DNA from: a bacterium
Lineage (GTDB): Bacteria > Patescibacteriota > Patescibacteriia > JAACEG01 > JAGUWE01
Direction: 5' to 3'
DNA: 64,000 nucleotides
Assembly: GCA_043798995.1 (NCBI GenBank)
Contig: JAZDOD010000010.1
Span: forward strand, 845 to 64,844
Shown: positions 585 to 51,376 of the stretch, piece after piece
How the letters are laid out: every line of letters starts with the position of its first letter
Numbering within the stretch: position 1 is the stretch's first letter
The notes under the pieces: generated by a model
What the model saw: only the letters and a program-made list of their open reading frames with translations
Databases searched by the model: none
Told to the model about the DNA's origin: nothing
Translations under genes and position numbers: made by a program

Positions 585-711
585 GTCATTGCGACAGCCT
601 GTCCAGAAACTGCCGAATCATACTCTACTGTCATTCCTGCGAAAGCAGGAATCCAGAAAAATAAGATAAATTTCAGATATTCTGGATTCCGCATCAAGTG
701 CGGAATGACAG
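585..711. repeat. MITE-like hairpin element, GTCAT...ATGAC family (copy E1)
   Basis: Termini are 'gtcattgcgacagcc' and 'ggaatgacag'. Internal palindromes are 'gtcattcctgcgaaagcaggaatccaga' and 'tctggattccgcatcaagtgcggaatgac'. It is related to the copies at 36113, 36668 and 49962. The ORF-track ATG at 705 lies inside this repeat. Confidence 0.7.
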
Positions 712-812
712 TTTATAGACAGGCTGGCGGCAATCTCACGGGAAGCTGCAGGCTGACCCGTGTTCGCTGGTCACTAATGCTCCCGCTGAGAATTTTGAAT
801 TTGGTTAAGCTT

Positions 813-3800
813 ATGTTTTCTAAAAATACAGACAAAAAATTTTATAAAAAGAAAATATATTTGCTAACTTTTGGTTTTTTAATTGGTTTTGGTTTTTTTC
901 TTTTGGCTAAGACGGCACTAGCTCAATTCGGCCTGGAATACGCCACGGCTTCTGGCTTGGGTACGCGCGGACTTAAACAAACTGTTTTTACCGTCATTAA
1001 TGTTCTCTTGGGTTTCTTGGGCATTGTGGCCCTCGTTATTGTGATGTATGGCGGTTTTGTTTGGATGACAGCCGGCGGCAATCAGGAAAAGGTTTCGCGA
1101 GCCAAGAAAATTTTATTAAATGGCTTAATTGGCCTGCTTTTAATTTTAACTTCTTGGGGGATTGCCAATTTTGTTTTGGGCCAGCTTTGGGGAGCAACCG
1201 GCGGTGGCGGACCAACCCCGGGTTCGCCTTGTGATTGCGTGACAGAACTTGGAATTTGTTCCGGGTGTTTGCGTTGTCAGAATACAGGCGGACCGGGTGT
1301 TTGCACCTGGCAGAATGATGTAACTTGCGACCCGACTTGTTTTGGCTTGCCCGGCGCCAAGACCTTTTACGCTCAAAAATTCCAGCCAACTTCGCCGCCG
1401 GATGCCATTCGCAACGCTGTAGTCAGAATTACCTTTAAAGGAGTAAATACTTCAAGCCAGCCCGGAGCCATTAATTATGGTACGAACTTTTCCGTGATAG
1501 ATGTGACCGGCGGTAATGTTTTAGTCAATCCTGATGCGGCCGGTAGTTATCCTAAGGTGGTTGGCAACCGCTTGGAATTTAAGCCCGACACTAACTGTCC
1601 GCCGCCCAATGCCAGTTATAAATGTTTTAATAGCAATAATGATTATCAAATTGTTATTAGTAATTTACCGCCCAACACCGCCGTGATTTCCAATACGGCC
1701 GGCATTAATATTAATTGTATTTTAGGAGCTGGCTGCCAAGCTAATTTTCGCACCAATGATATTGTTGACACCACGCCGCCGCAGATCAGCGTTTCAACTT
1801 TAAGCCAAATTTGCGCCGGTACAACCAATACGGTTTATGCCAATGGCAAAGATGATTCTGGCATTGCTTATGTTGAATTTTATTACGACGATGGCAGCGG
1901 CGACGCTTTAATTGATACTGATAATGCACCAAACTGTCTTGGTGTACCACCTAATGTTAATTGTTCAGCCCAGGTTAATTGGGATACTTCAGGAGACCCT
2001 GATCTGGTGGCCGGCGGTACCGCCTTTCTCAAAGCCAAAGCTATGGATTTGGATTCCAATGAAGGTAATTCAGCCAATTATAAAGTGACTTTGCGGGCGG
2101 CTCATTGCTGTAACAGCATTCAAGATATGGATGAAGAAGCGATTGATTGCGGCGGAACCGACTGCGCGGCTTGCGCCGGCGCTAATTGCGATATTGATAT
2201 GCCAACCCCGGGCTGCCAACCTGACGATATGGTTTGCGCTTCAATTTTTTGCGATCCAAGTCCTGGCCCGAACGAGTGCAAATGCCAGCAGCCGCCGATT
2301 ATTGACTGGGTCCAGCCGGCCGGTGGTTTTTGCGACGGCTCAATCAATACTCCGTGCAACGATAATGCTGATTGTTCTACTTTTATTCCTAATACATGCA
2401 ATAATACCGATCCTAATGGCCGGCCGGGTAATTTTGTCACCATCGGCGGCAGATTTTTTGGCACGACATCCGGCACGGTTAATTTTAGAGGAGCCGCTGG
2501 CTGGATTATGGCTCTTCCCCCTATTTCAGTTAATCCGGCCTGTCCTCCTGACACTTGGACTGATCACGAGATTGTGGTAGCCGTGCCTAACGGGGTAGTT
2601 AATGGCCCTATTCAAGTTGAAACAGCCGCCGGTTATACTGACCAGACCGCCGATACGCGCGGACCGCTGGTTCCTGATTTTCTTGTTAATACTATTACTC
2701 GTCCCGGGCTTTGCCAGGCCGCGCCAAATAGCGGCCCTTACGCTACCTTAGTTAATTTGACCGGTGTGCGTTTTGGCCCGGCTGCAACTTCTCGGACCAT
2801 AGAATTTGGCAATGAAACGAGTTTTGTGCCCGGAGAAAACATTAACTGGATAAATAACGAAAACGCTAATGTTACCGTGCCTAATCTTCGGCCGGCAGAT
2901 GTCGGGCTTAGGATTAAAACAGATGATATTTACAGCAATTATTTGTCGTTTAGGGTTTTGCCCGGCACGGCCGGTGGGCCGTATATTTCTTATCTTGACC
3001 CTGTTAGCGGGCCGGTCGGACAATACATGACGATTTTTGGCGGTAATTTTGGCAATCAAGTAGGCACGGTTAAGTTTATTGATGGCGGCGCAAATGAAGT
3101 TAACGCCGATGTTAATTTTCCCAGCGAGTGTTTAAATAATTTTTGGCACAATAATTATATTATTGTCAAAGTGCCCAGTGCGGCCGGAGTAAACGACGTA
3201 AAAGTTATCACCCAAGCCGGCAAAGAAAGTAATGTTGTACCATTCACCATAACAGCCGGCACTCCTGGGCCGGGCATTTGCGCTCTGATTCCTGATAACG
3301 GTCCGGTTGGCACAACAGTTGATTTTTTTGGCGATAATTTTGGCGGAGCCCTGGGCCAGATAATTTTTCATAATAGTGTTTCCGCCCCCATTACCTCGTG
3401 GGCTAACCAGTCAATTAAGAGTTCAGTTCCTTTAGGCGCGGTAACCGGCCCGGTTTTTGCCCGCCGTGGCGGTCAGCCGTCAAATCAAGTGCCTTTCCGG
3501 GTCGGAGCTTGTCAGGATTCTTCCCAATGCCAAGCGGGCGAGGAGTGCTGCGAGGACAAGACCTGCAGGATAACTTGTCCGGAAAAAGTGGAAGCAATCT
3601 ACGGCTGGAGCTTTACCACCGGCGATTATTTTGTGGCTCAAAATTGTATTCGGGACATAGAGATTCCCGCGACCGGGCCAAAAGGCGGCAATATTTGCGT
3701 TAATGCCCAAATTGCCGTGCGTTTTACCACTACAGTTAATGATGCTTCTGTGCCACCTAATGTTGTAGTTGAAAGATGTGATAATGATGAATGCACTACG

Positions 3801-6800: not shown

Positions 6801-6923
6801 TATTGCCGCGATGCTGGCGGCCCGGGCCCAGCCGATGATCTGCCGGAGTTAAAATGGGATCCGCCGCTCATTCCCGGCCAAAGCGGAAATCTTCTCAAAG
6901 AATTTTATTTTGTGGTACCGTAG
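813..6923 (+). CDS. Giant (~2,035 aa) secreted/membrane-anchored cysteine-rich surface protein. It has an N-terminal signal peptide plus two hydrophobic helices (VirB2/TrbC-like topology), IPT/TIG-like beta domains, about 5 tandem 'Myxococcus cysteine-rich repeat' units (CGDG..GEDCDDGN..DGCS.KC) and Cys-rich EGF-like modules
   Basis: Long ORF. The likely true start is the ATG at 813 (MFSKNTDKK...), because the upstream ATG at 705 is inside repeat E1. Repeats 'ICGDGNIDLGEDCDDGNITNGDGCSAKCLAEG' recur about 5 times around 4,900-5,270. There is no stop codon for 6.1 kb. Confidence 0.75.
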   Translation: MFSKNTDKKFYKKKIYLLTFGFLIGFGFFLLAKTALAQFGLEYATASGLGTRGLKQTVFTVINVLLGFLGIVALVIVMYGGFVWMTAGGNQEKVSRAKKILLNGLIGLLLILTSWGIANFVLGQLWGATGGGGPTPGSPCDCVTELGICSGCLRCQNTGGPGVCTWQNDVTCDPTCFGLPGAKTFYAQKFQPTSPPDAIRNAVVRITFKGVNTSSQPGAINYGTNFSVIDVTGGNVLVNPDAAGSYPKVVGNRLEFKPDTNCPPPNASYKCFNSNNDYQIVISNLPPNTAVISNTAGININCILGAGCQANFRTNDIVDTTPPQISVSTLSQICAGTTNTVYANGKDDSGIAYVEFYYDDGSGDALIDTDNAPNCLGVPPNVNCSAQVNWDTSGDPDLVAGGTAFLKAKAMDLDSNEGNSANYKVTLRAAHCCNSIQDMDEEAIDCGGTDCAACAGANCDIDMPTPGCQPDDMVCASIFCDPSPGPNECKCQQPPIIDWVQPAGGFCDGSINTPCNDNADCSTFIPNTCNNTDPNGRPGNFVTIGGRFFGTTSGTVNFRGAAGWIMALPPISVNPACPPDTWTDHEIVVAVPNGVVNGPIQVETAAGYTDQTADTRGPLVPDFLVNTITRPGLCQAAPNSGPYATLVNLTGVRFGPAATSRTIEFGNETSFVPGENINWINNENANVTVPNLRPADVGLRIKTDDIYSNYLSFRVLPGTAGGPYISYLDPVSGPVGQYMTIFGGNFGNQVGTVKFIDGGANEVNADVNFPSECLNNFWHNNYIIVKVPSAAGVNDVKVITQAGKESNVVPFTITAGTPGPGICALIPDNGPVGTTVDFFGDNFGGALGQIIFHNSVSAPITSWANQSIKSSVPLGAVTGPVFARRGGQPSNQVPFRVGACQDSSQCQAGEECCEDKTCRITCPEKVEAIYGWSFTTGDYFVAQNCIRDIEIPATGPKGGNICVNAQIAVRFTTTVNDASVPPNVVVERCDNDECTTVSPVAGNVTMVTLATDPVTEGFTFTPSIIVLFDTNTTYRVTLRGGPGGIEDESGTPLIDDFSWTFKTRNDGRQCEIDKINVAPNNSKLVLMGATQDYVALITAKEDPCLLIDPKGYTWAWESSKPEVAQISGFTVNTATAVAMGAGSTDIIAKIPSENKSGKAILTVDLSGLQVLNAVPKCDTTCTNAQIRARFSNWVDDNTLAGNLFIYQCPNKVCGSGFTPVALNGANPYDYFWNGLTGDSLLDINQAANFNPNTFYRVIIKGGPAGIKNYLGGGLSNPNYKSSAGEECEPPGFPGCSASCLHTSGECTPGSLGCNGAGLHTGSIGSSCGNGAVEPARGENCDPSAPGYGPSGCDSTTCLLKGSIFPAICGDSSTPDRVHGEACDDRNQTAGDGCSPKCLREGTVAPICGDGNIDLGEDCDDGNITNGDGCSAKCLAEGAIGSVCGDRRVGLGEDCDDGNTAPNDGCSGSCLSEGATGLAVCGNNVVEDGKINDSYSWVFGVGNAICQPLRSEVVPANLTTIIGKTIDYLANVYSLADECSPTGQLLDADDYPWEWTTNNAFVADFDPPLPLPPHPPRETVKTLNVGNAQICASADTTTPPDGTYDLQDCADIVVQNPGPRRCQQSGNACCANGVSSCEPAYKCLENQSLPACPWSPGFFQDCLCCCDPTDDKCPAPLSCYADKAPCAGANRGLCCGCKQDSECPDPIGEGCGSDKCCHSRPAVAATLPANNDANICRNLKIRVDFDPLEPMQTSSFVGKVEMIKMSDSSAVKGMTSSAGNTILYFSPQSILEPQTQYRVTIKKEVLSIYKVAMAADYIFSFTTGDIICEADYLKVSIQHDADLFVTTNKDLFTCAKTSGCIDDTNTTILPPDIPDNQHLYLAEAMDMTGVVLTGYDYNWQTTDPDDIVNPNTWALNSITVTANNKKGRTTYNVKATPQLTSGNTAAVSNYVYVTNFICENPWPAVNNWPWIDDSVLNPNSICNTPGCFNVNTQFQIMYCRDAGGPGPADDLPELKWDPPLIPGQSGNLLKEFYFVVP

Positions 6924-6967
6924 TTCGTCATTCTGATCCGCCAGTTGGCGGAGAAGAATCCCGAACA
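6924..6967. repeat. Short hairpin element 'ttcgtcattctga-ccgccagttggcgg-agaagaatcccgaaca' (GTCATTCTGA sub-family)
   Basis: Shares both end motifs with the B units at 7289-7331 and 7411-7452. It has a central palindrome 'ccgccagttggcgg'. Confidence 0.65.
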
Positions 6968-6972
6968 GTTTT

Positions 6973-7260
6973 ATGAAAGAGAACTTTTATGTTTACATTG
7001 CCACCAATAAACGAAATACCGTTTTTTATACTGGGATAACCAGTGATTTGGCAAAAAGAATGTGGCAACATAAACAGAAAGAGGTCAAAGGTTTTACTAG
7101 TAAATATAACATTAACAAATTAGTCTATTACGAGATATTTTCCAATCCCCAAGAGGCAATAGCAGCTGAAAAGAAAATCAAAGGTTGGACAAGAAAAAAG
7201 AAGATTGATTTAATCAAAGAGATTAATCCTGAATTTAAAGATTTGTCAGAAGAACTATAA
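6973..7260 (+). CDS. GIY-YIG nuclease family protein (UPF0213-like, 95 aa)
   Basis: 'FYVYIATNKRNTVFYTGITSDLAKRMWQHK...GFTSKYNINKLVYYE' matches the GIY-YIG catalytic module. The gene is bracketed by repeat elements on both sides. Confidence 0.8.
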   Translation: MKENFYVYIATNKRNTVFYTGITSDLAKRMWQHKQKEVKGFTSKYNINKLVYYEIFSNPQEAIAAEKKIKGWTRKKKIDLIKEINPEFKDLSEEL

Positions 7261-7495
7261 TGAGATCCTTCACTGCGTTCAGGATGACTACTTTTTTCGT
7301 CATTCTGAGCGGAGCGAAGAATCCCGAACAACATTAAAGGGGATCCTTCACTGCGTTCAGGATGACAAGAGAAGATGTTCAGGATGACAAGAGAAGATGC
7401 GTAGGATGACTACTTTTTTCGTCATTCTGAGCGGAGCGAAGAATCCCGAACAAGATCGGATGGGATCCTTCACTTCGTTCAGGATGACCACCCTC
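7261..7495. repeat. Composite array of two repeat units: A = 'gatccttcactgcgttcaggatgac' (x3), B = 'tacttttttcgtcattctgagcggagcgaagaatcccgaaca' (x2)
   Basis: Direct sequence repetition at 7264/7342/7466 (A) and 7289/7411 (B). The ORF-track ORFs 7128..7334(-) and 7357..7590(-) are translations of these repeats and are not called as genes. Confidence 0.75.
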
Positions 7496-7510
7496 AGCAC
7501 AAGATAGTCA

Positions 7511-9763
7511 TTGGCCCTATTGGGCAAAAGTAAATTTATCCATTCTATGTTAGTAAGACAAAAAACCAAACGAAAAAAATTAATGCGCAAAAATCGTTCA
7601 CAACTATTATTAGTTGTTAGTTGTATGTTGTTAGCATTATTGGTTGGTTTTGGTTTTTACTATCTTAACCTTAATTTTAAAAATTTTATCTTCTCAGCCC
7701 CCGCCCAGGCCCAAACCGAAAGCGCCCTGGCCATTCGCGTCTTCAAAAATCCCGACCACCTCTCGCCCGAACAATGGTACAAGGAAAATGTGCCTCACCC
7801 AAGCAATCCGCAGTCAACCGTGATTGATGGCTATCAAGCCATCCGCGATGGCCGCAGCATTTATGTCTCGGCCGCCAACTTAAACACCGTTGACAACCAG
7901 CTTCACTCCAACATTTATTTAATTTCCTACAGCGAAGGCGCTTCTACTGCCGCCCAAAAGATTTTTGAGGGAGTTTTGGCTAATTGGCAGTTTAACAGCA
8001 ATATACCGCCTAATAATGCAGGCAAAGTTTGCTCCAATGATTACACCACGGTCTGCAGCCAGGATAAGGATTGTCCCACAGGCGAAACTTGCTTAAACAT
8101 TGAGCCCAAACCCCGCCTCACCCGCGACGTGAAGCGACTGGCTGATCTCCAAGATATCCGCCAAGAACTGGAAGATTACAATTATCAAGCCGGCTCTTTT
8201 CCGACTTTAAGCTCCGGCACTTACATTCCCAAACTTTCTTTTTCCGTCTGGCCCAGCTGGGAAAAAACTTTGGGGCAAAACTTGGGTTCAACCTTACCCG
8301 CTGATCCAATTAACCGATTGATGGGCTGTACTAATCCGTATGACCCAACCACTTGTTGGGATAACAAATCTTTAGCTTTTCAGTGCCCCGGCAACTATTA
8401 CATTTATGCCTACCGATCGCCAACTCTTTCCGGCGACCAAGCCAAACTTTACACCAAATTAGAATACCGCGATCAAACCTGGGCCTCAACTTTAGATATT
8501 TTAACTAACCCCCAAGAATTATTAGATAATATATTAGCTAAGTGTCTGCTTAATTTTGGCCAAAATACCAATGATTATGATAATGATACTGTGCCTAACG
8601 GCGATGATAATTGTCCGACCATTCCTAATACGACCCAAACTGATTCAGAAGTTCCAATAAAAGACGGTATTGGCGATGCCTGCGACGCCTGCCCCAATGA
8701 CGCGCAAAACGACCAGGACAACGACGGTTATTGCCTCGGGCTGGCCAGTTTAGTTTTTGGCGACAAAAAAAGCAATGACAATTGCCCCACTATTTACAAT
8801 CCCAGCCAGCAGGAAAATCCAGCTATCCCAGGCACGGGTTTGGCTTGCTCGCGCTGTCAGGACGCTGATAGTGACAGCTATTGCTCTTATGCGACCGGCG
8901 GCGATGATTGTGATGACACAAAGGCTGATATTCACCCAGGCGCGCCAGAATTTTTCAATGGCCTTGATGATAACTGCGACGGCCGGATTGACGAATGCGA
9001 AAAAACAGTCGGCTTTAATGTTACCACGTCATTCGGCACGACTCAAGTAGCCCAGGCTTTTAGCTTGGACAAAGACGTCGAAGATCTTTACTCTTATGCC
9101 AGCGCCTCTGCTTATATATTTGAGTTTGATTATAATAAAGATGGCTGGGCTGATTGGTATCAAAGTCAAGCGAGCAATATTTTTATTTATCATAGCCGGA
9201 TCAGCAATCGTCTTTATTTAGGAATAATTCATAATATGGAACAGGGGGGCACTGGCACTGCTGATCTTGGCTTTTCAGGCCTGCCAGCTGACGCCACCTT
9301 TGTGATTAAGGATGACCCCAACCACGCCCCCGATACTTATAGCTTAACTCAAATTACACATGGCTGGAGCAAAAATAGCGACGGCGCCATAATTGACTTG
9401 GGGCCAGCCAGCCGGCCTTGGACAATCACTATTACCAACAATGGTTTTGGTGGCGTCGGTCCCGACCCGATTAATAAGTGGCGCCTGGCTTATCCGCGCT
9501 TCAACGGCATTAACTATATTGGTTTAGATATGGCCGCCGCCTCCTGGGTCAGGTTAGAATACGGCGGCAGCTTGAACCAGTCCATTCCCTGTTATAATGG
9601 CCCAGCGGGGACCGAAGATGTCGGGATTTGCCATGGAGGGTTTGCCACCTGTCAACTAACCGGGCTTTTAGGGACGTGCGTGGGTGAGGTTGTGCCCCAG
9701 ATAGAAAAATGCGGCAATGGCATTGATGAAGATTGCAATGGCTCTGATCTTGTTTGTGCATAA
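7511..9763 (+). CDS. Secreted cysteine-rich protein with thrombospondin-type-3-like Ca-binding repeats (DNDTVPNGDDNCP.., DQDNDGYC) and MopE-like 'putative metal-binding' CxxC...DDCDD..PGA.E.CDG.D motifs
   Basis: N-terminal hydrophobic segment after a basic stretch (start may be the internal Met at 7547 or 7583). The TSP3-like aspartate-rich repeats and the terminal 'CGNGIDEDCNGSD' are read directly from the translation. Confidence 0.6.
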   Translation: MALLGKSKFIHSMLVRQKTKRKKLMRKNRSQLLLVVSCMLLALLVGFGFYYLNLNFKNFIFSAPAQAQTESALAIRVFKNPDHLSPEQWYKENVPHPSNPQSTVIDGYQAIRDGRSIYVSAANLNTVDNQLHSNIYLISYSEGASTAAQKIFEGVLANWQFNSNIPPNNAGKVCSNDYTTVCSQDKDCPTGETCLNIEPKPRLTRDVKRLADLQDIRQELEDYNYQAGSFPTLSSGTYIPKLSFSVWPSWEKTLGQNLGSTLPADPINRLMGCTNPYDPTTCWDNKSLAFQCPGNYYIYAYRSPTLSGDQAKLYTKLEYRDQTWASTLDILTNPQELLDNILAKCLLNFGQNTNDYDNDTVPNGDDNCPTIPNTTQTDSEVPIKDGIGDACDACPNDAQNDQDNDGYCLGLASLVFGDKKSNDNCPTIYNPSQQENPAIPGTGLACSRCQDADSDSYCSYATGGDDCDDTKADIHPGAPEFFNGLDDNCDGRIDECEKTVGFNVTTSFGTTQVAQAFSLDKDVEDLYSYASASAYIFEFDYNKDGWADWYQSQASNIFIYHSRISNRLYLGIIHNMEQGGTGTADLGFSGLPADATFVIKDDPNHAPDTYSLTQITHGWSKNSDGAIIDLGPASRPWTITITNNGFGGVGPDPINKWRLAYPRFNGINYIGLDMAAASWVRLEYGGSLNQSIPCYNGPAGTEDVGICHGGFATCQLTGLLGTCVGEVVPQIEKCGNGIDEDCNGSDLVCA

Positions 9764-9854: not shown

Positions 9855-10700
9855 ATGATTGATTTAAAAAAGAAAATTAAATTACTAAAAGAATATTTTT
9901 TTCGGCGGTCAGAGGTTTTGATGGCGTTTGTTTTTGGCTCTCAGGCAAAAAAGAAGGCTGGTAAAATTTCTGATTGGGATATTGCCATTTATTTTCAACC
10001 GTGCTCAAAAGAGATAGAGTGGGAAAGCAACCGCCGTTATCCTCAAGAAGAAAAAATTTGGCTTGATTTAGTTGAACTGCTGGAAACTGATCAAGTTGAT
10101 TTAGTTGTTCTCAACCGAGCTTCAGCCAGCGTGGCAGCTTCAGCTCTTCAAGGCCTACCTTTAATAATCAAAGACCGTCAGCTTTTTCTTGAATTTATGT
10201 TAATTGTTAGTCGGGAAGCCGAAGATTATCGCCAAACTGCCAAAGAATACGCCGAGATTTACTGGCGCTCCTCTTCACTAAGTGAAGAAGATAAATACAT
10301 CCTTAATCGACGAGTTATTTTTCTTGATTCAGAATTAAAAGATGCAGCTAAATTCCGCGAGCTTAATCAGTTAGAATATGAAAAAGATAGCACCAAAAGA
10401 AGGGAAGTGGAGCGTTGGATTGAAAACTTGATCAATGCGGCCATTGATATTACAAAAATTATTTTAGCCAGCCAGAAGCGACCGATTCCCTCGACTTACA
10501 AAGAAGTTCTTCGAGCACTTGAAATTTTACCCAATTGTCCAAAAAATTTAGGAGAACAACTGGCTGTTTGGGCGGAACTGCGTAATATTCTGGCTCACGA
10601 GTATTTAGACATTCGCTGGCGGCGGATTGAAGATTTTATTAAAAAAAGCGAATCTTATTTTCAAAATTTAATCAAAATGGTCAAAGAAAATTTTCTTTAA
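9855..10700 (+). CDS. Single-chain fusion of a MntA-like nucleotidyltransferase (N-terminal) and a HepT/DUF86-like HEPN RNase domain (C-terminal); toxin-antitoxin-like
   Basis: N-terminal 'FVFGSQAKKKAGKISDWDIAIYF' matches the Pol-beta NTase G[SG]x(9-13)DxD motif. C-terminal 'LRNILAHEY' matches the HEPN/HepT Rx4HxY motif. 281 aa is about MntA plus HepT. The gene has its own TATAAT upstream at about 9811. Confidence 0.6.
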   Translation: MIDLKKKIKLLKEYFFRRSEVLMAFVFGSQAKKKAGKISDWDIAIYFQPCSKEIEWESNRRYPQEEKIWLDLVELLETDQVDLVVLNRASASVAASALQGLPLIIKDRQLFLEFMLIVSREAEDYRQTAKEYAEIYWRSSSLSEEDKYILNRRVIFLDSELKDAAKFRELNQLEYEKDSTKRREVERWIENLINAAIDITKIILASQKRPIPSTYKEVLRALEILPNCPKNLGEQLAVWAELRNILAHEYLDIRWRRIEDFIKKSESYFQNLIKMVKENFL

Positions 10701-13222: not shown

Positions 13223-14980
13223 ATGCCGAAATTAAGCAATTTGCTTTTAGATAAAATAGTTCAAAAGAAATTAGCCAGCGTCGCCGAACTTGAAAAATTA
13301 GTCAAAGAAAGCAAATCTTCCAATGAAGAGATTGAAAATTTGTTAGTCAAAAAAAGAATTGTTGATATTGAAACCCTAACCCAGCTTAAGGGCGAGCTTT
13401 TAGGAGTTCCTTATATTAATTTAAAGGGTACTTCGCTGGATCCGGCGGTGATTAGCTTAATTCCGTCTGAAGTAATGGAAAATCATCAGATTATTGCTTT
13501 TGAACGCGCCGAAGGGGAACTTAAGGTCGGTTTGGTTGAGCCGCAAAATTACCGGGCGATTGAAACAATTGAATTTTTGGCCAAAAAAAATCGTCTGCGC
13601 GTCAAATATTTTATCATTTCTGCCGCCAGCTTTGAGGAAGTTTACAGTAAGTTCAGAACTATTAAAAAAGAGGTGGAAAAGGTCTTAGATATTGCCTCAG
13701 CCAAATATACGCCGGCTAAAGAACGGGAAGGATTGTCCACGTTTAAGGAATTGGAAGTTGTTAAGGGAGCGCCGATTTCAAAAATTGTTGATGTCATTAT
13801 TAACCACGCGGTTGAAGGCAAGGCCTCGGATATTCATATTGAGCCGGGCTCTAAAGAGTCAAGGGTCCGCTATCGTTTGGACGGCATTTTGCATACCTCG
13901 TTAATTTTACCAATTTATTTACATTCAGCCATTATCTCGCGCATCAAAGTTTTGGCTAATTTGAAATTAGATGAAACCCGCATTCCCCAGGACGGGAGAA
14001 TTCGTTTGGTCATCAGCGGAAAACCGATTGATTTTCGTATTTCAACTTTGCCGCTCTTGGATAATGAAAAAGTGGTAATGAGGGTTTTGGATACTTCGGC
14101 CGGCGTGCTTAGCCTTTCAGATTTGGGCTTTAACAAACACCAAGTCGCCATTATTGAAAGAAATGTTGAGAGTTCGCACGGTATGTTTTTAGCGACCGGT
14201 CCGACCGGCTCTGGTAAATCAACCACGCTTTACACCGTGCTTAATATGCTTAATAAAGAAGGCGTTAACATTATTACTTTAGAAGATCCGGTTGAGTATT
14301 ATTTGAAAGGCGTTAATCAATCGCAAGTTAAGCCGGAAGTTGGTTTTACTTTCGCCAGCGGGCTTCGTTCAATTTTGCGCCAGGACCCGGACATTATTAT
14401 GGTCGGTGAAATCAGAGATAGCGAAACGGCCGAGCTGGCGATTCACGCCGCTTTGACCGGCCACATTGTGCTTTCAACTCTTCACACTAACGACGCTACC
14501 GGAGCCATTCCTCGGCTTATTGATATGAAAGTTGAGCCGTTTTTATTGTCTTCAACTTTAAACTTAGTAATTGCCCAAAGATTAATCCGCCGCCTTTGCC
14601 AGCATTGCCAGCAAGAGGTTGAGTTGCCGGCCAATCTTAAAGAGGATGTGTTTAAGGCCTTGGCCGAACTGCCCGACGAATATTTAGACGAAATAAATAT
14701 TAAAGACAAGAGAAATATTCCCGTTGAAAAATTGGTTTTTTATAAAGGCCAAGGTTGCAATCATTGCGGCGAGACCGGTTATAAAGGCCGCTCGGTTATT
14801 GCCGAAGTTTTGCAGGCGACGGATAATTTGAAAAAAATTATCAACGAGGGAAATAAAATTGATGAGGTAATGGCAGAAATTAAAAAACAGCAAATGATCT
14901 CGGTTGTTCAGGACGGCATTATTAAGGCCTTAAAAGGCATTACCAGTTTAGAAGAAGTGATGCGGGTGATGAGAGAATAA
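13223..14980 (+). CDS. pilB: Type IV pilus assembly ATPase PilB (GspE family)
   Basis: GspE N-terminal domain, Walker A 'GPTGSGKSTT', Asp box, His box and the tetracysteine 'CQHC...CNHC' motif are all present in a 585 aa protein. Confidence 0.92.
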   Translation: MPKLSNLLLDKIVQKKLASVAELEKLVKESKSSNEEIENLLVKKRIVDIETLTQLKGELLGVPYINLKGTSLDPAVISLIPSEVMENHQIIAFERAEGELKVGLVEPQNYRAIETIEFLAKKNRLRVKYFIISAASFEEVYSKFRTIKKEVEKVLDIASAKYTPAKEREGLSTFKELEVVKGAPISKIVDVIINHAVEGKASDIHIEPGSKESRVRYRLDGILHTSLILPIYLHSAIISRIKVLANLKLDETRIPQDGRIRLVISGKPIDFRISTLPLLDNEKVVMRVLDTSAGVLSLSDLGFNKHQVAIIERNVESSHGMFLATGPTGSGKSTTLYTVLNMLNKEGVNIITLEDPVEYYLKGVNQSQVKPEVGFTFASGLRSILRQDPDIIMVGEIRDSETAELAIHAALTGHIVLSTLHTNDATGAIPRLIDMKVEPFLLSSTLNLVIAQRLIRRLCQHCQQEVELPANLKEDVFKALAELPDEYLDEINIKDKRNIPVEKLVFYKGQGCNHCGETGYKGRSVIAEVLQATDNLKKIINEGNKIDEVMAEIKKQQMISVVQDGIIKALKGITSLEEVMRVMRE

Positions 14981-14985
14981 TCCCC

Positions 14986-15180
14986 GCTCTAATTGACCTA
15001 ATTGACCTAATTGACCTAATTATTCTAAATAAATTCTCTCCCTACGGGAGATCTCTGTCCCTTCGGGACATCTCCCGAAGGGATGACCAAAGGGAGACAA
15101 ATCCCAATGACCAATAAAATTTTGGGATTTAGAAAATTGGGAATTATTTAGAGCAATTAGACTAATTAGAATAATTAGGA
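14986..15180. repeat. Inverted-repeat-bounded intergenic element: left arm is a 'taattgacc' x3 tandem, right arm is 'aattagactaattagaataattagg', with an internal cluster of short G/C hairpins (tctccc-N3-gggaga, tgtccc-ttc-gggaca)
   Basis: Read directly from the sequence between pilB and the receiver gene. Confidence 0.55.
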
Positions 15181-15198
15181 ATTCTTTATGACAAATTT

Positions 15199-15621
15199 AT
15201 GGTCAACAACAACAAAAAAACAAAAATCCTCCTGATTGAAGATGACGTTTTTTTATCTAATATTTACAGCAAAAAATTTGAAAGCGAGGGCTTTGAAATG
15301 TTGATTGCTTTGGATGGAGAAAAGGGGCTGAAACTGGCTTTAAGCAAAGAGCCGGCTTTGATTTTATTAGATCTTCTTTTGCCGGGCCTAAACGGCTTTG
15401 AAGTTTTAAAAGTTCTTAAAAAAGACGAAATGGCAAAAAAGATTCCGGTCATTCTTTTAACTAATTTAAGCCAAAAAGAAGATATTGAAAAAGGACTAGC
15501 TTTGGGAGCAGACGATTATTTGATTAAGACCCATTTTATGCCTTCGGAAATAGTGGAAAAAGTCAAGAAGTTTTTAAGCAAAACATCTTTTAAATCCGAA
15601 ATCCTAAGCACTAAACTCTAA
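15199..15621 (+). CDS. Single-domain response regulator (CheY-like receiver)
   Basis: 'KILLIEDD...LILLDLLLPGLNGFEVLKVLK...KIPVILLTN...GADDYLIK' carries the conserved receiver Asp and Lys. It sits between pilB and pilC. Confidence 0.85.
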   Translation: MVNNNKKTKILLIEDDVFLSNIYSKKFESEGFEMLIALDGEKGLKLALSKEPALILLDLLLPGLNGFEVLKVLKKDEMAKKIPVILLTNLSQKEDIEKGLALGADDYLIKTHFMPSEIVEKVKKFLSKTSFKSEILSTKL

Positions 15622-15729
15622 ACAAATTCTAAACTTTAAATCACAAATTCTAAACGGTTTGGAATTTAAAAAATTGGAATTTTGAATTTGTTTAGGATTT
15701 AGAATTTCGGATTTAGGTATTTTTTTATT

Positions 15730-16941
15730 ATGTCCATTTTTAACTATAAGGCAAAAAACCGCAAAAGCCAGACCATTAAAGGCAAGGTTGAGGCAATGAC
15801 CGAGGAAGTGGCAGCTGATATTTTAAAAGACAAAAATCTTGTTGTTATTAAGATAAGCCGCCAGAAGCGGATTTTTGTTCTTGATAAGATTTCGGAAACA
15901 CTTTTTCATAGGGTTAAAATTAAAGATCAGGTGATTTTTTTTCGTCAGCTCTCTATCCTAATTTCAGCTAATATGCCCTTAGTCCAGTCTCTTCGCATTT
16001 TAGCCAAACAAACTCGCCTTGAGTCCTTTCAAAATATTATTTTAGACATAGCCGATGATGTGGAGGGAGGCAATCGCTTATCCGATTCTTTAGCCAAATA
16101 CCCGCGGGTTTTTAACAATTTCATTATCAATATGATTAGATCCGGCGAGACCTCGGGCAAGCTTGAAGAGGTCTTGATTTATCTGGCTAATCAGCAGGAA
16201 CAGGATTATGATATGATGAGTAAAATTCGCGGGGCAATGATTTATCCGGCTTTTATTTTCGGGATGTTACTTGTGGTTGGGGTGGTGGTGATGACTTTTG
16301 TCATTCCCAAACTGACCGCGATTTTTACCGAATCGGAAACCAAACTGCCAATGGCCACCACGATTTTGATCAATACTAGTAATTTTATCATCAATTTTTG
16401 GTGGCTTTTACTTTTACTTTTTTTTGTGCTTTTGTCATTTTTGCAAATTTATATCAGAACGCCCTTTGGCCGGCGTCAGTGGGATGTTTTTAAGTTAAAA
16501 ATACCGATTATCGGGCTGCTTTTTCAGAGAATTTATTTAGTCCGTTTTACCCGCAGTTTTTCCACCCTGCTGACCGGCGGAGTCGTAATTACCAAGGCCT
16601 TGGAAGTAACCAAAGAAGTGATTGGCAATGTAGTTTACAAGGAATTGATTGGCAAGACCATTAAAGAAGTTGAGGACGGCAACTCCTTAGTTTCAATTTT
16701 TAGACAGAGTCCCTATGTCCCGGCTATGGTTGTTCAGATGATTGCCGTGGGCGAAGAAGCCGGTAAATTAGATTTAGTGTTGACTAAAATCACTGATTTT
16801 TACACCAAAGAAGTGGAGACGCTCGTTAAAAATTTGCTGACCCTGCTTGAACCATTGGTTATTGTTTTAATGGGTTTGGGCGTGGCCGCTCTCGTCGCCG
16901 CCGTTATTTTGCCCATTTACAACTTGGCCTCGCAGTTCTAA
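15730..16941 (+). CDS. pilC: Type IV pilus inner-membrane platform protein PilC (GspF family)
   Basis: Duplicated T2SS-F domains, 3 TM helices, 403 aa. Confidence 0.9.
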   Translation: MSIFNYKAKNRKSQTIKGKVEAMTEEVAADILKDKNLVVIKISRQKRIFVLDKISETLFHRVKIKDQVIFFRQLSILISANMPLVQSLRILAKQTRLESFQNIILDIADDVEGGNRLSDSLAKYPRVFNNFIINMIRSGETSGKLEEVLIYLANQQEQDYDMMSKIRGAMIYPAFIFGMLLVVGVVVMTFVIPKLTAIFTESETKLPMATTILINTSNFIINFWWLLLLLFFVLLSFLQIYIRTPFGRRQWDVFKLKIPIIGLLFQRIYLVRFTRSFSTLLTGGVVITKALEVTKEVIGNVVYKELIGKTIKEVEDGNSLVSIFRQSPYVPAMVVQMIAVGEEAGKLDLVLTKITDFYTKEVETLVKNLLTLLEPLVIVLMGLGVAALVAAVILPIYNLASQF

Positions 16942-16994
16942 AAATTTAAAATTATTTTATTAAATTATTACGAGTTTAGCGAGTTAGCGGGTTT

Positions 16995-17381
16995 ATGAAA
17001 ATAAAAAATTTTGAGGATCTGAATATTTGGAAGTTAAGCTTAAAAATAACCAAGGAGATTTATGACTTAACTTCTAAAAGCGGTTTTTCTCATGACTTTG
17101 CTTTGAGAGATCAGATAAGAAGAGCCATTATTTCTGTTAGTTCTAATATCACGGAAGGATTTGAAAAAAATAACAACAATGAATTCATTCGTTATCTTAA
17201 AATCTCAAAAGGATCAACTGGCGAGGTTAGAAATCAACTTTATATCGCCTTGGCGGTAAATTATATTACTCAACAAGAATTTGAAAAGGTTAATCAAGAA
17301 TTAATATCTTTAGCCAATCAGATCGGGAAGTTTATTAGTTATTTAGAAATAAGAAGAAAATTAACCCGCCAAACCCGTTAA
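16995..17381 (+). CDS. Four-helix-bundle protein (23S rRNA intervening-sequence protein family, TIGR02436-like), copy 1
   Basis: 'DQIRRAIISVSSNITEGFEKNNNNEFIRYLKISKGSTGEVRNQLYIA'. The gene is flanked by inverted repeats at 16972-16994 and 17363-17389. Confidence 0.75.
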   Translation: MKIKNFEDLNIWKLSLKITKEIYDLTSKSGFSHDFALRDQIRRAIISVSSNITEGFEKNNNNEFIRYLKISKGSTGEVRNQLYIALAVNYITQQEFEKVNQELISLANQIGKFISYLEIRRKLTRQTR

Positions 17382-17452
17382 ACTCGCTAAATAGATTAAT
17401 AAAAGGAATAAATTTTAATTTTTTATTTTAATTTTACCTTTCCATTATTTTA

Positions 17453-17461
17453 TGTTATAAT
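17453..17461 (+). promoter_or_regulatory. Extended -10 promoter element 'TGtTATAAT' upstream of pilA
   Basis: The sequence 'tatgTGTTATAATgtgg' lies about 55 bp upstream of a strong RBS 'aggaaggggg' and the pilin start codon. Confidence 0.5.
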
Positions 17462-17517
17462 GTGGATAACTAATTAAAATGAAGAATTAAAATTCTTAAC
17501 AGGAAGGGGGTGAAACA

Positions 17518-18051
17518 ATGTTAAAAAAGAAAAAAGGTTTTACTTTAATTGAATTATTGGTCGTTATCGCTATTATTGGTATTTTATCAACCTTAGCCAT
17601 TATTGCCTTAGGCAATGCCCGCGCCAAAGCCCGAGACGCCAAGCGTCTTTCCGATGTCAAACAGCTTTCTACCGCCTTAGAGATAGCTGAAACAACCAAT
17701 CCCGGAGCTAGTTTAGCCTGTCTCGGCCGTGTTATAACAGACAATGGTGTAGCCACAGATACTTGCACCGATTTAACCGAATCCGCTAATGGCGTAGTTT
17801 TAAACTGGGATAATTTTTATGATCCTTCTTGCTCTCCTACTGCTACCCCTGCTTGTACCACTGTTTGCTCTACTGCTGCTCCAACAACAGCGTGTATGTA
17901 CTCAGTAAATCTTGGTGCAACTGTTGCGATGACCACTGCTAATTACAATATTTGTTTTCGCATGGAACAAACCAGTAGTGTAGGTGGCGCCGGTCTTTAT
18001 AAGATTTCCACCGGTGGCAATATTTCATCGGGTTGTACCGATTTACCGTAA
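17518..18051 (+). CDS. pilA: Type IV major pilin (prepilin with class III signal peptide)
   Basis: 'KKGFTLIELLVVIAIIGILS' is the prepilin cleavage/methylation motif. There is a strong Shine-Dalgarno sequence and a terminator downstream. Confidence 0.9.
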   Translation: MLKKKKGFTLIELLVVIAIIGILSTLAIIALGNARAKARDAKRLSDVKQLSTALEIAETTNPGASLACLGRVITDNGVATDTCTDLTESANGVVLNWDNFYDPSCSPTATPACTTVCSTAAPTTACMYSVNLGATVAMTTANYNICFRMEQTSSVGGAGLYKISTGGNISSGCTDLP

Positions 18052-18132
18052 CATGTTTTTTACTTTGTCGCCTGCCGGCAGGCTGGATTTTACAAAGGGA
18101 AAAAACAAAAAAGCAACCGGATTTAATAAAAC

Positions 18133-18165
18133 AAAAACTTCTCTAAAAGAGAAGTTTTTGTTTTA
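18133..18165 (+). terminator. Rho-independent terminator after pilA
   Basis: 'aaacttctct-aaa-agagaagttt' stem followed by 'ttgtttt'. It is preceded by a second palindrome 'gcctgccggcaggc' at about 18070. Confidence 0.65.
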
Positions 18166-18218
18166 TACGTTTTCGTCATTAAGGGTAATTTGTGATATAA
18201 TTTTAACAAGGGAGGATT

Positions 18219-18374: not shown

Positions 18375-18376
18375 TT

Positions 18377-33460: not shown

Positions 33461-33577
33461 AATTTTTAATTTTTAATTTTTAATTTTCAATTAAACCGGT
33501 ACTTTGAAATGGCCGGTTTTTGTGATACAATAACAACAAATCCAAAATCCAAAACTCTAAATACTAAACAAATTCTA

Positions 33578-33946
33578 ATGATTCAAATTCCAAATTCCAA
33601 ACGAAATAATAAATATGATTTAGAGGAAAGAAGTCTTAAGTTTGCTAAAAGAGTTAACGATTATGTTAATAAATTGCCTAAAACTATTCCTAACATTGAA
33701 AACGGTAAGCAATTAGTTCGCGCAGCCGGTTCAACCGGTGCTAATTATATCGAAGCTAATGAATCTTTGGGCAAAAAAGATTTTCAAATGAGAATCAAAA
33801 TTTCTAAAAAAGAAGCCAAGGAAAGTGGATTTTGGTTAGAACTATCCCAACCTTTAAAAGAAAATGAAAAAGAAAAACAAGATTTAATTCAAGAAAGCAT
33901 AGAACTTATGAAAATTTTTGGTTCTATTTTAGAAAAGTCAAAATGA
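33578..33946 (+). CDS. Four-helix-bundle protein (IVS-protein family), copy 4
   Basis: 'AAGSTGANYIEANESLGKKDFQMRIKISKKEAKESGFWLEL'. The ORF-track start at 33509 lies inside the left inverted repeat; the Met at 33578 gives a length like copies 1-3. Confidence 0.7.
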   Translation: MIQIPNSKRNNKYDLEERSLKFAKRVNDYVNKLPKTIPNIENGKQLVRAAGSTGANYIEANESLGKKDFQMRIKISKKEAKESGFWLELSQPLKENEKEKQDLIQESIELMKIFGSILEKSK

Positions 33947-36112: not shown

Positions 36113-36262
36113 CTGTCATTCCCGTCCCTGCTTCCGCAGGGGTAAACTTGTCCCCGCGAAAGCGGGGAGCGGGAATCCAGAACTCAGAAAGTTTATCCCT
36201 GGATCCCGCATCTCAGCCCGAGGCTGATCCGCCTTTGGCTGGAAAGTGCGGGATGACAAAAC
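36113..36262. repeat. MITE-like hairpin element (GTCAT...ATGAC family), copy E4
   Basis: 'tgtcattcccgtccctgcttccgcaggg...ggaaagtgcgggatgacaaaa'. Its reverse complement occurs at 36668-36822. Confidence 0.75.
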
Positions 36263-36667: not shown

Positions 36668-36822
36668 AATTGTCATCCCGCACTTTCCAGCCAAAGGCGG
36701 ATCAGCCTCGGGCTGAGATGCGGGATCCAGAATGAAAATAGAATAATTGCTGGATTCCTGCTCCCCGCTTTCGCGGGGACAAGTTTACCCCTGCGGAAGC
36801 AGGGACGGGAATGACAAAATAC
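36668..36822. repeat. MITE-like hairpin element, copy E5 (inverted relative to E4)
   Basis: Near-perfect reverse complement of 36113-36262. Confidence 0.75.
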
Positions 36823-43028: not shown

Positions 43029-43146
43029 GTCATTGCCACGCCCACCCCTTTCCGAGTAAAGGGGTGGGCGTGGCAATCTCTTTCTTCATTAAAAATAATA
43101 AGATTGCTTCGTCGTCCGCCAGCTGGCGGACTCCTCGCAATGACAG
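43029..43146. repeat. MITE-like hairpin element (GTCAT...ATGAC family), copy E6
   Basis: 'tgtcattgccacgcccacccctttccgagtaaaggggtgggcgtggcaatc ... cgtcgtccgccagctggcggactcctcgcaatgacag'. Confidence 0.7.
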
Positions 43147-49043: not shown

Positions 49044-49087
49044 AAACCCCCCACCAATGTACATTGGTGGGGGGTTGTGTTTTTGGG
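49044..49087 (+). terminator. Strong rho-independent terminator
   Basis: 'aaccccccaccaatgtacattggtggggggtt' (perfect 13-bp stem) followed by 'gtgtttttgg'. Confidence 0.8.
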
Positions 49088-49201
49088 GAAAATGTGGTTT
49101 AATTGGAAAAGTAAAATCCCCCTATTTCCCCCTTTTTAAAAGGGGGACTAAGGGGGATTTCTGAAATTAAATTTATCTCAATAAGTTGTAAGTTAATTTC
49201 T

Positions 49202-49961: not shown

Positions 49962-50121
49962 ATCATTGCGATAGCCTGTCCAAAAACTGTCATTCCGCAC
50001 TTGATGCGGAATCCAGAATATCTGAAATTTATCTTATTTTTCTGGATTCCTGCTCCCCGCTTTCGCGGGGACAACCCCGTATTTAATACGGGGCCTGCGG
50101 AAGCAGGGGCAGGAATGACAA
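49962..50121. repeat. MITE-like hairpin element (GTCAT...ATGAC family), copy E7
   Basis: 'tcattgcgatagcctgtccaaaaactgtcattccgcacttgatgcggaatccagaa...ttctggattcctgctccccgctttcgcggggacaa...gcaggggcaggaatgacaag'. It shares modules with E1 and E4. Confidence 0.75.
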
Positions 50122-50128
50122 GAAGTAT

Positions 50129-51376
50129 TTATTTAGAATAAAGTTTAATAGTTTTACTTAACATTTTTTCAAAACCAAATTCTTTTTCAAATTTTTCTTT
50201 CGCCTTTTGGCCAAAATTTTTCGCTAAGTCAGGATTTTCCAGCATCTGGCTTATTTTTTCTGCCAAAATTTCACTTTCTCTTGGCTGAACTAAAAAGCCG
50301 GATACCCCGTCTTCAATCATTTCCGAGATGCCCCCGACTCGGGTAGCGACAATCGGCAGCTCGGCTGCCATAGCTTCTAAAATAGTGTAAGGCAAGCCTT
50401 CCTTGACCGATGATAAAACAAAAATATCAAAGGCCTTAAGATATCTGTAGGCGTCAGCGATTTTTACTAACTTAAAATTATCTTGTAAATTTAGTTGGTT
50501 AATTTTTTTATTCAGAAATTCTCTTTGTTGACCTTCGCCAATCAAAACAAAAAGAATATCAGGAAATTTTTTTCTCACCAAATCAGCTGCTTTAATTAAA
50601 TAATTAAGTCCCTTGGTCGGATAAAAATTAGCGATCGTGCCAATGATTTTGAATTTTGAATTATGAATTATGAATTTAGAATTAATCATGTTTAGTAATT
50701 TCTCTCTGGCCTCGTTTCTTTCTAAAAATTTTAAAGTATTAACATCGATGCCGTTATGAATAGTAATTAATTTTTCCTCGGAAAAATTATTCTTTACGGC
50801 AACTTGCCGGTCAAATTCCGAAACGCAGATAATCTTGTCTTTAAAGAAAGCGGTAAATTTTTCCGCCCAAAAATAAAAAGTTTTCTGCCAGTGCGATAAA
50901 GGTTCGTTAAAAACCCAGCCATGAACGGTATAAAGCACATAACATTTAACATGAAACATGAAACAAATTTTAGCCGCTACAGAGCCGAGAATGGAAACTT
51001 TTGAACTATTAAGGTGGATAATGTCTGGTTTTTCTTTTTTGATTAATCTAACGATTTCTATTAACCCCCAAAAATCAGTCAAAGGGTTAATGGCTCTAAC
51101 CAGATTTTTAAGATAAATTGTTTTAATGCCTTTTTGGGCGAGTTTCTTAAATAATTCACCATTTTCATCTTCGCCGGCAGCCACCACTGCTTCAAAAAAA
51201 ATGTCATTGCGAGGACCCCGCGTAGCGGGGGATGTGGCAATCCCATTCAAAACTGAAAGAGATCCCTCGCCCTGTTTTGGCAGGACTCGGGATGACAGAG
51301 CGGTTGCCAAATCAAAAACATATTTCTGCGCTCCGCCCCACTCGGACTGGGTTATGATATATAATATTTTTTTCAT
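50129..51376 (-). CDS. Glycosyltransferase family 4 (GT-B), carrying an in-frame 32-codon repeat-element insertion near its N-terminus
   Basis: 'MKKILYIITQSEWGGAQKYVFDLATAL...' is the typical GT4 N-terminus, and the 'E...GGISEMIEDGVSGFL' motif lies near the C-terminus. Residues 27-60 are encoded by repeat copy E8. Confidence 0.8.
   Translation of the reverse strand: MKKILYIITQSEWGGAQKYVFDLATALSSRVLPKQGEGSLSVLNGIATSPATRGPRNDIFFEAVVAAGEDENGELFKKLAQKGIKTIYLKNLVRAINPLTDFWGLIEIVRLIKKEKPDIIHLNSSKVSILGSVAAKICFMFHVKCYVLYTVHGWVFNEPLSHWQKTFYFWAEKFTAFFKDKIICVSEFDRQVAVKNNFSEEKLITIHNGIDVNTLKFLERNEAREKLLNMINSKFIIHNSKFKIIGTIANFYPTKGLNYLIKAADLVRKKFPDILFVLIGEGQQREFLNKKINQLNLQDNFKLVKIADAYRYLKAFDIFVLSSVKEGLPYTILEAMAAELPIVATRVGGISEMIEDGVSGFLVQPRESEILAEKISQMLENPDLAKNFGQKAKEKFEKEFGFEKMLSKTIKLYSK
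51203..51298. repeat. MITE-like hairpin element, copy E8; 96 bp, inside the GT4 coding sequence
   Basis: 'gtcattgcgaggaccccgcgtagcgggggatgtggcaatc...cctgttttggcaggactcgggatgacag'. Its termini are the same as the intergenic copies, and its length is a multiple of 3. Confidence 0.7.

Follow-up and report, generated by a model that had tools for sequence, protein, structure and literature searches.

GTC-tagged hairpin repeats in a Patescibacteria-like genome resemble Ssn-related motifs and flank a candidate Ssn-like GIY-YIG nuclease gene

We analysed a family of short "GTCAT" repeats in a 64,000-nucleotide (nt) stretch of contig JAZDOD010000010.1, from a Patescibacteria-like genome (hereafter the window; all coordinates are positions in it). 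These repeats are very probably Ssn-related motifs (SRMs), or repetitive extragenic palindromic (REP) sequences of the CGTC type, and a candidate Ssn-like nuclease gene lies among them in the canonical motif-gene-motif arrangement. An earlier sequence-only reading of the window had proposed either non-autonomous transposable elements or structured repeats resembling REPs and bacterial interspersed mosaic elements (BIMEs). The latter proposal is borne out, the repeats having the anatomy of CGTC-tagged REPs and of SRMs, including the Neisseria motif NTS. The window is a new instance of a known system with local detail, and not a new class of element.

The described sequences were present at all eight of the loci listed in the sequence-only reading, although its count of at least nine copies exceeds this listing. 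The eight loci hold 18 intact and at least four degenerate units. Across the window, GTCATTSC occurs 15 times as compared to 2.6 expected, a number reached in none of 100 shuffles, and GTCATYC occurs 28 times as compared to 7.3 expected. As had been claimed, the copies are similar beyond their short termini. Positions 644-725 match 49973-50054 in inverted orientation (98% over 82 nt), 36114-36259 match 36670-36816, also inverted (99-100% over about 146 nt), and 7281-7366 are directly repeated at 7403-7488 (93%). The units were rightly described as GC-rich (57.8% GC as compared to 39.5% for the window). Because of the motif excess over chance, the extended similarity of the copies and this GC contrast, the family is real. 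No match to Rfam was found at the gathering threshold over the whole window, and region 6850-7550 gave chance-level matches only.

No cognate transposase had been seen in the window. That reading had overlooked an open reading frame (ORF) at 6973-7260, nested between two of the listed copies (6924-6967 and 7261-7495), whose 95-residue product is a hydrolytic nuclease of the GIY-YIG type and not a known transposase. The ORF starts 11 nt past the tail of a + unit (6927-6962) and ends 2 nt before a - unit (7262-7288). The protein has a single domain, PF01541, over residues 5-78 (E = 1.3e-18), and residues Y8, Y19, R29, H33 and E66 are invariant in 26 homologues. Its AlphaFold model shows a compact GIY-YIG fold (pLDDT 91), the nearest solved folds being UPF0213, Slx1 and the UvrC N-domain; no Ssn structure was among the matches of the PDB structure search with this model. 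COG2827/UPF0213 was considered as a first label and dropped, as the match to UPF0213 structures was weak (E = 6e-5), in keeping with a separate subfamily. On an unrelated contig (L001), beside a different neighbour gene, lies a 96%-identical gene that has both ends in common with the window gene. The homology between this element and that of the window starts exactly at cGTCAT, and the two genes show 12 nucleotide differences, seven of them in synonymous codons.

The repeat loci are listed below with their strands; doublets, which are inverted pairs, have no strand of their own. Fold stability relative to shuffled sequences is given as z.

585..622, + strand: degenerate unit (GTCATTGCGACAGCCTGTCCAGAAACTGCCGAATC), a remnant folding no better than shuffles (z = +0.3).
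629..709, doublet: unit + at 630-655 (GTCATTCCTGCGAAAGCAGGAATCCA), AT-rich spacer, unit - at 683-709 (GTCATTCCGCACTTGATGCGGAATCCA); z = -5.8 and -4.6.
6927..6962, + strand: left unit of the nuclease-carrying element, GTCATTCTGA-TCCGCCAGTTGGCGGA-GAAGAATCCC, then CGAACA and the ORF; z = -4.2.
6973..7260, + strand: gene for the candidate Ssn-like single-domain GIY-YIG nuclease, 95 residues (Pfam PF01541).
7262..7288, - strand: right unit of the nuclease-carrying element (GTCATCCTGAACGCAGTGAAGGATCTC), beginning 2 nt past the stop codon.
7299..7366, ORF-less doublet 1: left unit of the nuclease element, CCCGAACA and right unit, with an 18-20-nt spacer in place of the ORF.
7367..7410, - strand: two tag-proximal half-units, truncated copies, GTTCAGGATGAC with a repeated AAGAGAAGAT flank, and GCGTAGGATGAC.
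7421..7488, ORF-less doublet 2: 93% direct repeat of doublet 1.
36115..36257, doublet upstream of gatC: unit + at 36115-36179 (62 nt, two nested hairpins) and unit - at 36200-36257 (55 nt, twin hairpins); z = -5.1 and -4.2.
36672..36815, inverted copy of the 36115-36257 doublet (99-100% identity), between gatC and gatA.
43029..43144, ATTGC-type doublet in a divergent intergenic region: unit + at 43029-43080 (20-bp stem) and unit - at 43100-43144 (CCGCCAGCTGGCGG apex); z = -9.5 and -2.5.
49962..49988, + strand: degenerate remnant (ATCATTGCGATAGCCTGTCCAAAAACTG), second copy of 585-622 in the same orientation.
49989..50119, doublet, inverted copy of 630-709: its unit - at 50043-50119 (74 nt) is a four-way junction with three hairpins in place of the GAAA loop; z = -7.7.
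51203..51296, in-frame doublet within a glycosyltransferase gene (50129-51376, - strand), encoding LSSRVLPKQGEGSLSVLNGIATSPATRGPRNDI.

Intact units share one layout, with an unpaired (T/C)GTC tag, a hairpin stem, a free interior and an unpaired tail led by C. The tag reads TGTC in 13 of the 18 intact units, CGTC in three and another base followed by GTC in two, so that T or C precedes GTC in 16. All 18 have GTC directly 5' of the palindrome, a stem opening with A-T and T-A, and a C directly 3' of the stem. Three further pairs vary by subfamily yet remain complementary, that is, they covary; the basal stem classes are ATTCC/GGAAT, ATCCC/GGGAT, ATTGC/GCAAT, ATTCT/AGAAT and ATCCT/AGGAT. Tails are CCAG in 8/18 units and CCC, CTC or CTT in the remainder. 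The interior is a tetraloop or pentaloop (630-655, 683-709), a tandem G.A with two pairs and a GNA triloop (7299-7325), a 20-base-pair (bp) stem (43029-43080) or a set of two to three nested small hairpins, in units of up to 74 nt (36115-36179, 36200-36257, 50043-50119). Units 630-655 and 50043-50119 have a common outer stem, ATTCCTGC/GCAGGAAT, and the GAAA loop of the former is replaced by three hairpins in the latter. The interchangeable palindromic modules noted earlier do exist, as the apical parts of the tagged hairpins. When the units were folded as DNA, the GTC and the 3-nt tail were single-stranded in the minimum-free-energy fold of every intact unit, and z was -3.6 or lower for 10 of the 17 folded sequences.

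The window contains seven ORF-less inverted doublets and one further pair of units flanking ORF 6973-7260. In the doublets, the tags point outward and AT-rich spacers of 20-33 nt separate two partners usually unlike in sequence. The terminal inverted motifs first described are not plain terminal inverted repeats, since each end is a self-folding unit of GTC, hairpin and C-led tail.

The unit scan demanded GTC, AT and a closing 5-mer and is hence partly circular for these determinants. Therefore, the non-circular support comes from a tag-specific closure test and from a k-mer ranking. In the closure test, a GTC-AT site was counted when the complementary 5-mer followed by C closed it at a distance of at most 110 nt. 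Of the GTC-AT sites in the window, 21% were closed, as compared to a mean of 4% for the other 63 trinucleotide tags (best 11%). In 80 loci homologous to the nuclease gene, the rates were 31% for GTC and 3.4% for other tags. Searching the gene flanks for perfect stems (6 bp or longer) yielded no signal; most basal stems have only 5 bp, and chance stems dominate the count.

The window protein has more than 1276 homologues. Several of them end in peptides such as DSSLRSE or LRMTN, which are translated right-hand units. Exact-protein look-ups with the window GIY-YIG protein, GatC and P0001 matched no contigs. The linkage of gene and units was studied in the 80 homologous loci, whose proteins are 50-73% identical to that of the window and whose hosts include Patescibacteria, Chloroflexota, Cyanobacteria, Bacteroidota, Ignavibacteria, Proteobacteria, Firmicutes and Omnitrophota. 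Linkage was scored when a + unit lay at most 80 nt upstream or a - unit at most 80 nt downstream of the gene. Units flanked the gene on both sides in 40 loci, at least one stood in this arrangement in 56, and 68 had any unit nearby; elsewhere in the same loci the background was 0.45 units per kb. The model-free k-mer ranking gave the same picture. In the upstream flanks, GTCATT (40/80) and TGTCAT (36/80) were the most frequent 6-mers, enriched 16-19 times, and in the downstream flanks it was ATGACA (39/80, 19 times). The stem classes of the left and right units agreed within a locus: ATTGC was paired with ATTGC in 17 of 17 cases, and the AT(T/C)CT types paired among themselves. Proteins with the same flanking class were slightly more alike (61% as compared to 58% identity), in comparisons that are not independent of each other. 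The anatomy of the units, the nesting of the gene, its linkage to units across phyla and the relationships of the copies are direct observations of the present analysis.

Two published systems share these features. Di Nocera, De Gregorio and Rocco (2013, BMC Genomics 14:522; PMC3733652) defined CGTC-tagged REPs, which have an unpaired CGTC or TGTC (or CCTC) tag, a stem of 8-9 bp opening with A-T and T-A, a loop of 4-5 nt and a 3-nt tail close to CCA. They mostly form inverted dimers, often heterodimers, with spacers of 20-100 nt and occasional intragenic copies, occur in five phyla, and include Neisseria dRS3 and Rickettsia RPE-4 and RPE-6 (PMC3733652). They "apparently lack a dedicated transposase" (PMC3733652). 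The window units are similar in their unpaired tag, A-T/T-A opening, CCA-like tail, inverted heterodimers, intragenic copy and missing transposase association. They differ in that only 3/18 (630-655, 683-709 and 49989-50015) have the published size, an 8-bp stem with a loop of 4-5 nt, whereas the others are GA-bulged with 5 bp, long-stemmed with 20 bp or branched. The host, which looks like a genome of the candidate phyla radiation (CPR), would be outside the five reported phyla, and an enzyme candidate is present where the published work found no dedicated one.

In the second system, SRMs, including the Neisseria NTS/dRS3, flank homologues of the ssnA gene (Chenal et al. 2025, Nat Commun 16:2388; PMC11893778). 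The Neisseria NTS is CGTCATTCCCGCGMAVGCGGGAATCYRG. SsnA is a single-domain GIY-YIG protein of 94 residues (CDD cd10448) with catalytic residues Y6, Y17 and E64. It binds the hairpin as single-stranded DNA only, and not duplex DNA, RNA or the reverse strand, and cuts a few nucleotides upstream of the motif. Its specificity depends on sequence as well as structure: the C after the palindrome is the chief determinant of binding and the GTC in front of the palindrome is the chief determinant of cleavage, whereas the NTS loop is dispensable and extendable. SsnA lowers transformation by NTS-containing DNA. The authors noted that NTS-ssnA-NTS resembles an insertion sequence (IS) and is analogous to the pairing of REPs with REP-associated tyrosine transposases (RAYTs) (PMC11893778).

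Unit 629-656 agrees with the 28-nt NTS consensus at 25 positions, and two of the three mismatches form a compensatory pair. The window units have the CGTC/TGTC tag, the AT-opening palindrome and the C after the stem, and their CCAG tail fits the published CYRG. The candidate nuclease is likewise a single-domain GIY-YIG protein, of 95 residues as compared to 94 for SsnA, and its Y8, Y19 and E66 correspond to Y6, Y17 and E64, with spacings of 11 and 47 residues in both. In both systems motifs stand on either side of the gene, and most motifs lie between genes. Some differences are however observed. The host, Patescibacteria-like by its best named protein hits, its 39.5% GC and its type IV pilus cluster, resembles a group not named in the main text of PMC11893778. 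Window units of 55-74 nt have two to three nested hairpins, whereas published SRMs span 20-50 nt, and the units of the window gene itself have 5-bp stems with a tandem G.A and a triloop. Moreover, at least three stem classes occur beside one nuclease gene in 64 kb, the gene being flanked by one class only.

Several points weigh against assigning the repeats to the Ssn/SRM system. The published SRM string, HGTCWYN(0-2)YYVSBRHN(0-5)WNVSBRGN(0-2)RNCYNB, had no match in the window and none beside the gene in the 80 loci. Our implementation of this string, a search heuristic and not a definition, does match NTS itself. Membership therefore rests on the experimentally defined determinants and not on the published pattern. 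Further, for the short GA-bulged units folding predicts no gain in stability (z about 0). The protein was likened to SsnA by its published description (length, residues and architecture). Finally, the units of the gene are of the ATTCT/ATCCT classes, whereas most other doublets are ATTCC/ATCCC/ATTGC, so that one gene may not serve all subfamilies.

Transposition in trans was considered next to this assignment. As classical miniature inverted-repeat transposable elements (MITEs), the doublets would be deletion derivatives of a DDE-type IS, moved by a transposase recognising TGTCAT...ATGACA ends. Their size (68-146 bp), inverted 6-nt termini, near-identical copies at distant sites in both orientations and location in AT-rich intergenic DNA would all suit such elements. 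However, when the 10 nt bordering each of the seven doublets were compared, no direct repeats, as expected of target-site duplications, were found; these tag-side stretches are mostly T-rich. The shared termini are limited to TGTCAT/ATGACA, and the ends are independent hairpin units which also occur singly (6927-6962) and differ within a pair. Among the window ORFs scanned, no DDE, Y1/HUH or other transposase domain was found. An ORF-bearing version with the same ends as the doublets does exist, but it is the only one, its ORF encodes a GIY-YIG hydrolase rather than any known transposase, and the same linkage is seen across phyla. To our knowledge, GIY-YIG nucleases hydrolyse DNA and have no known strand-transfer activity. 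In the classical sense the MITE proposal is thus not supported, and we consider it highly improbable.

REP-RAYT systems have a GTAG tag and a Y1 HUH enzyme that acts through a covalent intermediate, making strand rejoining possible. The window system is similar to them, and to BIMEs and REP doublets forming hairpins (REPINs), in having tagged hairpins that would act as single-stranded DNA, inverted doublets, a flanked small nuclease gene and an enzyme expected to read tag and hairpin and to cut nearby. Mobilisation by a Y1 HUH tyrosine transposase would account for REP-like hairpins in inverted dimers, and a flanked small nuclease gene is also typical of RAYTs (PMC3733652; PMC11893778). Yet the tag is GTC or CGTC rather than GTAG, the flanked gene encodes a GIY-YIG hydrolase, and no Y1 domain was found among the window ORFs scanned. 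In the survey of Di Nocera et al., no species had a RAYT gene with CGTC units around it (PMC3733652). We give practically no credence to a RAYT as the partner enzyme.

A role at the RNA level, as terminators, mRNA-stabilising stem-loops or structured non-coding RNA with the nuclease gene as a passenger, was also weighed. The units are indeed stable, GC-rich hairpins located at gene ends, in most cases where the neighbouring genes share a strand, and stabilisation of upstream mRNA is a known effect of REPs (background in PMC3733652). In the 35.9-51.5 kb region, however, a T-run followed only two of ten units, and terminator-like sites (18 as compared to 16.3 in shuffled sequence) were not enriched, which speaks against the suggestion that the copies are terminators. 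As both orientations occur at each site, half of the units would be antisense. No Rfam family matches them, conservation falls on the unpaired tag and tail, features read by a DNA-binding protein, and the characterised enzyme does not bind RNA (PMC11893778). An RNA-level role is very unlikely as the main explanation, while a secondary effect of the units on transcripts is possible. Separately, a perfect 14-bp bidirectional terminator-like hairpin (AACCCCCCACCAATGTACATTGGTGGGGGGTT) was observed at 49045-49076, after a 1277-residue ORF; the genome therefore uses conventional terminators distinct from the tagged units.

The copies next to the nuclease gene bear on how doublets arise. Both doublets at 7299-7366 and 7421-7488 retain the left unit of the nuclease element together with CCCGAACA, and its right unit. 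Conversely, the doublets may have come first, a homing-endonuclease-like GIY-YIG gene having invaded their spacers. Such an order would fit the ORF occupying exactly the position of a doublet spacer, the many doublet subfamilies that have no ORF-bearing version in the window, and the wide transfer of the gene (50-73% amino-acid identity across phyla). But cleavage by the published enzyme falls beyond the hairpin, on its tag side, and not in the spacer, and duplex DNA is not cut. Moreover, the CCCGAACA that precedes the ORF is kept in the adjacent ORF-less doublets, which is more simply explained by internal deletion. We consider invasion of pre-existing doublets improbable and favour doublets as ORF-less derivatives of the nuclease module. 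Between the two doublets, 7367-7410 contains a 22-nt tandem duplication made of the last 12 nt of a unit (GTTCAGGATGAC) and its 10-nt tag-side flank (AAGAGAAGAT), with the half-unit GCGTAGGATGAC next to it. The breakpoints are near the cut position of the published enzyme and, speculatively, could mark error-prone repair.

Copies also differ in orientation and content between sites. Doublets 630-709 and 49989-50119 are inverted relative to each other, while the adjacent degenerate segment (585-622 and 49962-49988) keeps one orientation. The gatC gene is bracketed by two inverted copies of one doublet. In a metagenomic relative (L082) with a 96%-identical GatA, the two corresponding intergenic slots are occupied by entirely different units; unit turnover is therefore much faster than gene turnover. 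No empty site was found in this contig, the only close relative found, its slots being filled by other units.

The copies had been described as non-coding and located at gene boundaries. The boundary location does not apply to the copy at 51203-51298, which lies in frame inside ORF 50129-51376, and the non-coding claim fails for the same doublet. Owing to the doublet, the glycosyltransferase has 32 additional residues (LSSRVLPKQGEGSLSVLNGIATSPATRGPRNDI) flanked by the conserved DLATAL and FEAVVAAG. The insert is absent at this site in 16 of 20 aligned homologues, and the two closest ones (P0121 and P0122, 75% and 73% identity) have a diverged doublet at the same site. Several homologues (P0125, P0128, P0140, P0153 and P0218) have further short inserts, likewise in frame, both here and elsewhere in loops; examples such as SLRGRQQTAEAIS.., PPATLRPPDTLTRIMRAGVAKRAG and WKSAFLWKSDFPKI resemble translated hairpin repeats. 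It seems common in this glycosyltransferase family for repeats to insert into coding loops. Rickettsia palindromic elements, reportedly described by Ogata and co-workers in 2000, are likewise said to be inserted in frame and tolerated in protein-coding genes. The window case differs in the host lineage, in that the insert is a two-unit doublet and in that the nearest homologues have a diverged doublet at the same site.

For the mode of action, the biochemistry is that reported for characterised enzymes. We infer that the window protein would cut the window units, which would be DNA hairpins active in single-stranded DNA. If it works like the Neisseria and Wolbachia enzymes already characterised, the protein would bind the folded hairpin on one strand only, with the C after the stem as the main binding determinant. 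It would then hydrolyse the strand a few nucleotides 5' of the tag, GTC being the main cleavage determinant, and it would act neither on duplex DNA nor on RNA. The short doublets would be ORF-less derivatives of the unit-ssn-unit module that spread to, and turn over at, intergenic slots, one of them being tolerated in frame inside a gene. In the cell, the predicted effect is site-specific cutting of single-stranded DNA, either incoming transforming DNA or replication and repair intermediates, which would modulate recombination around the marked genes.

The unit-ssn-unit module may be a mobile IS-like element, with doublets as non-autonomous derivatives, multiplying through single-stranded DNA produced by a purely hydrolytic GIY-YIG nuclease. 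We hold this idea only tentatively and think it rather unlikely. If true, it would be a route of mobility that uses no transposase, recombinase or reverse transcriptase, and the nested hairpin modules would themselves be tiny mobile inserts, forming a further layer within hairpin loops. We know of no element for which such nuclease-only mobility has been demonstrated.

Other small cassettes were observed in the window. ORF 18377-18739 is a gene for a 120-residue DUF559 (Vsr-like) endonuclease (NF007294, E = 8.6e-18), bracketed (18218-18848) by 90-98% identical direct copies of another composite hairpin element, AAATCTCCCTCAATCCCTCTTTTACAAAGAGGG ... GAGGGATTT. The observation also covers positions 49114-49160, 60833-60936 and 15030-15090 of the window. 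Homologous loci were considered (L057, L089, L090, L091, L093 and L094). In four of five, from CPR-like, Gracilibacteria and metagenome contigs, AAATCCCCCTnAATCCCCC-loop-GGGGGA comes after the stop codon, and in four of five, including Cellvibrio, one or more hairpins and AGGGGGATTT stand before the start codon. A Smithella locus has the same bracket with a diverged motif. No matches to DUF559 were found in viral contigs. By its layout, DUF559 with its hairpins looks like a second pairing of a small nuclease with tagged hairpins, analogous to Ssn/SRM. We know of no description of this pairing, at which no literature search was aimed.

Four paralogous genes for 23S rRNA-intervening sequence proteins (PF05635, E values of 4e-32 to 6e-12) lie at 16995-17381, 20286-20672, 32281-32646 and 33509-33946. 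AT-rich inverted repeats of 40-64 nt, of the AAATCC(T/A)AAATCC type, bracket 20286-20672 and 32281-32646, and related arms occur around 33509-33946 and at 15596-15717. Such brackets suggest a third type of small cassette. The DUF559 and PF05635 cassettes interrupt a type IV pilus cluster (4-522 and 13223-22198) with a PilM-like protein, a PilB-type ATPase, PilC, two prepilins and a prepilin peptidase. This cluster could matter should the substrate of the Ssn nuclease be DNA imported in single-stranded form. ORF 9855-10700 combines nucleotidyltransferase (Polbeta/NTP_transf_2) and HepT-like RNase domains in one 281-residue protein and is a fused MNT-HepT toxin-antitoxin-like gene.

Overall, an apparently orphan repeat family is assigned, very probably, to an experimentally characterised nuclease/hairpin system, with a probable partner gene in the same window. 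The Ssn/SRM pairing would be extended to a Patescibacteria-like genome with a type IV pilus cluster, where single-stranded DNA uptake may matter. The sequences of the neighbouring doublets are direct evidence for short doublets being nuclease modules that lack the ORF. The units tolerate long branched interiors, in agreement with the published dispensability of the loop. The published SRM string misses the large gene-flanking class GTCAT-YSY-GAG..GAA-RSR-ATC, and published censuses therefore probably undercount the system. Each nuclease with its flanking units is a candidate new specificity for tools that cut single-stranded DNA.

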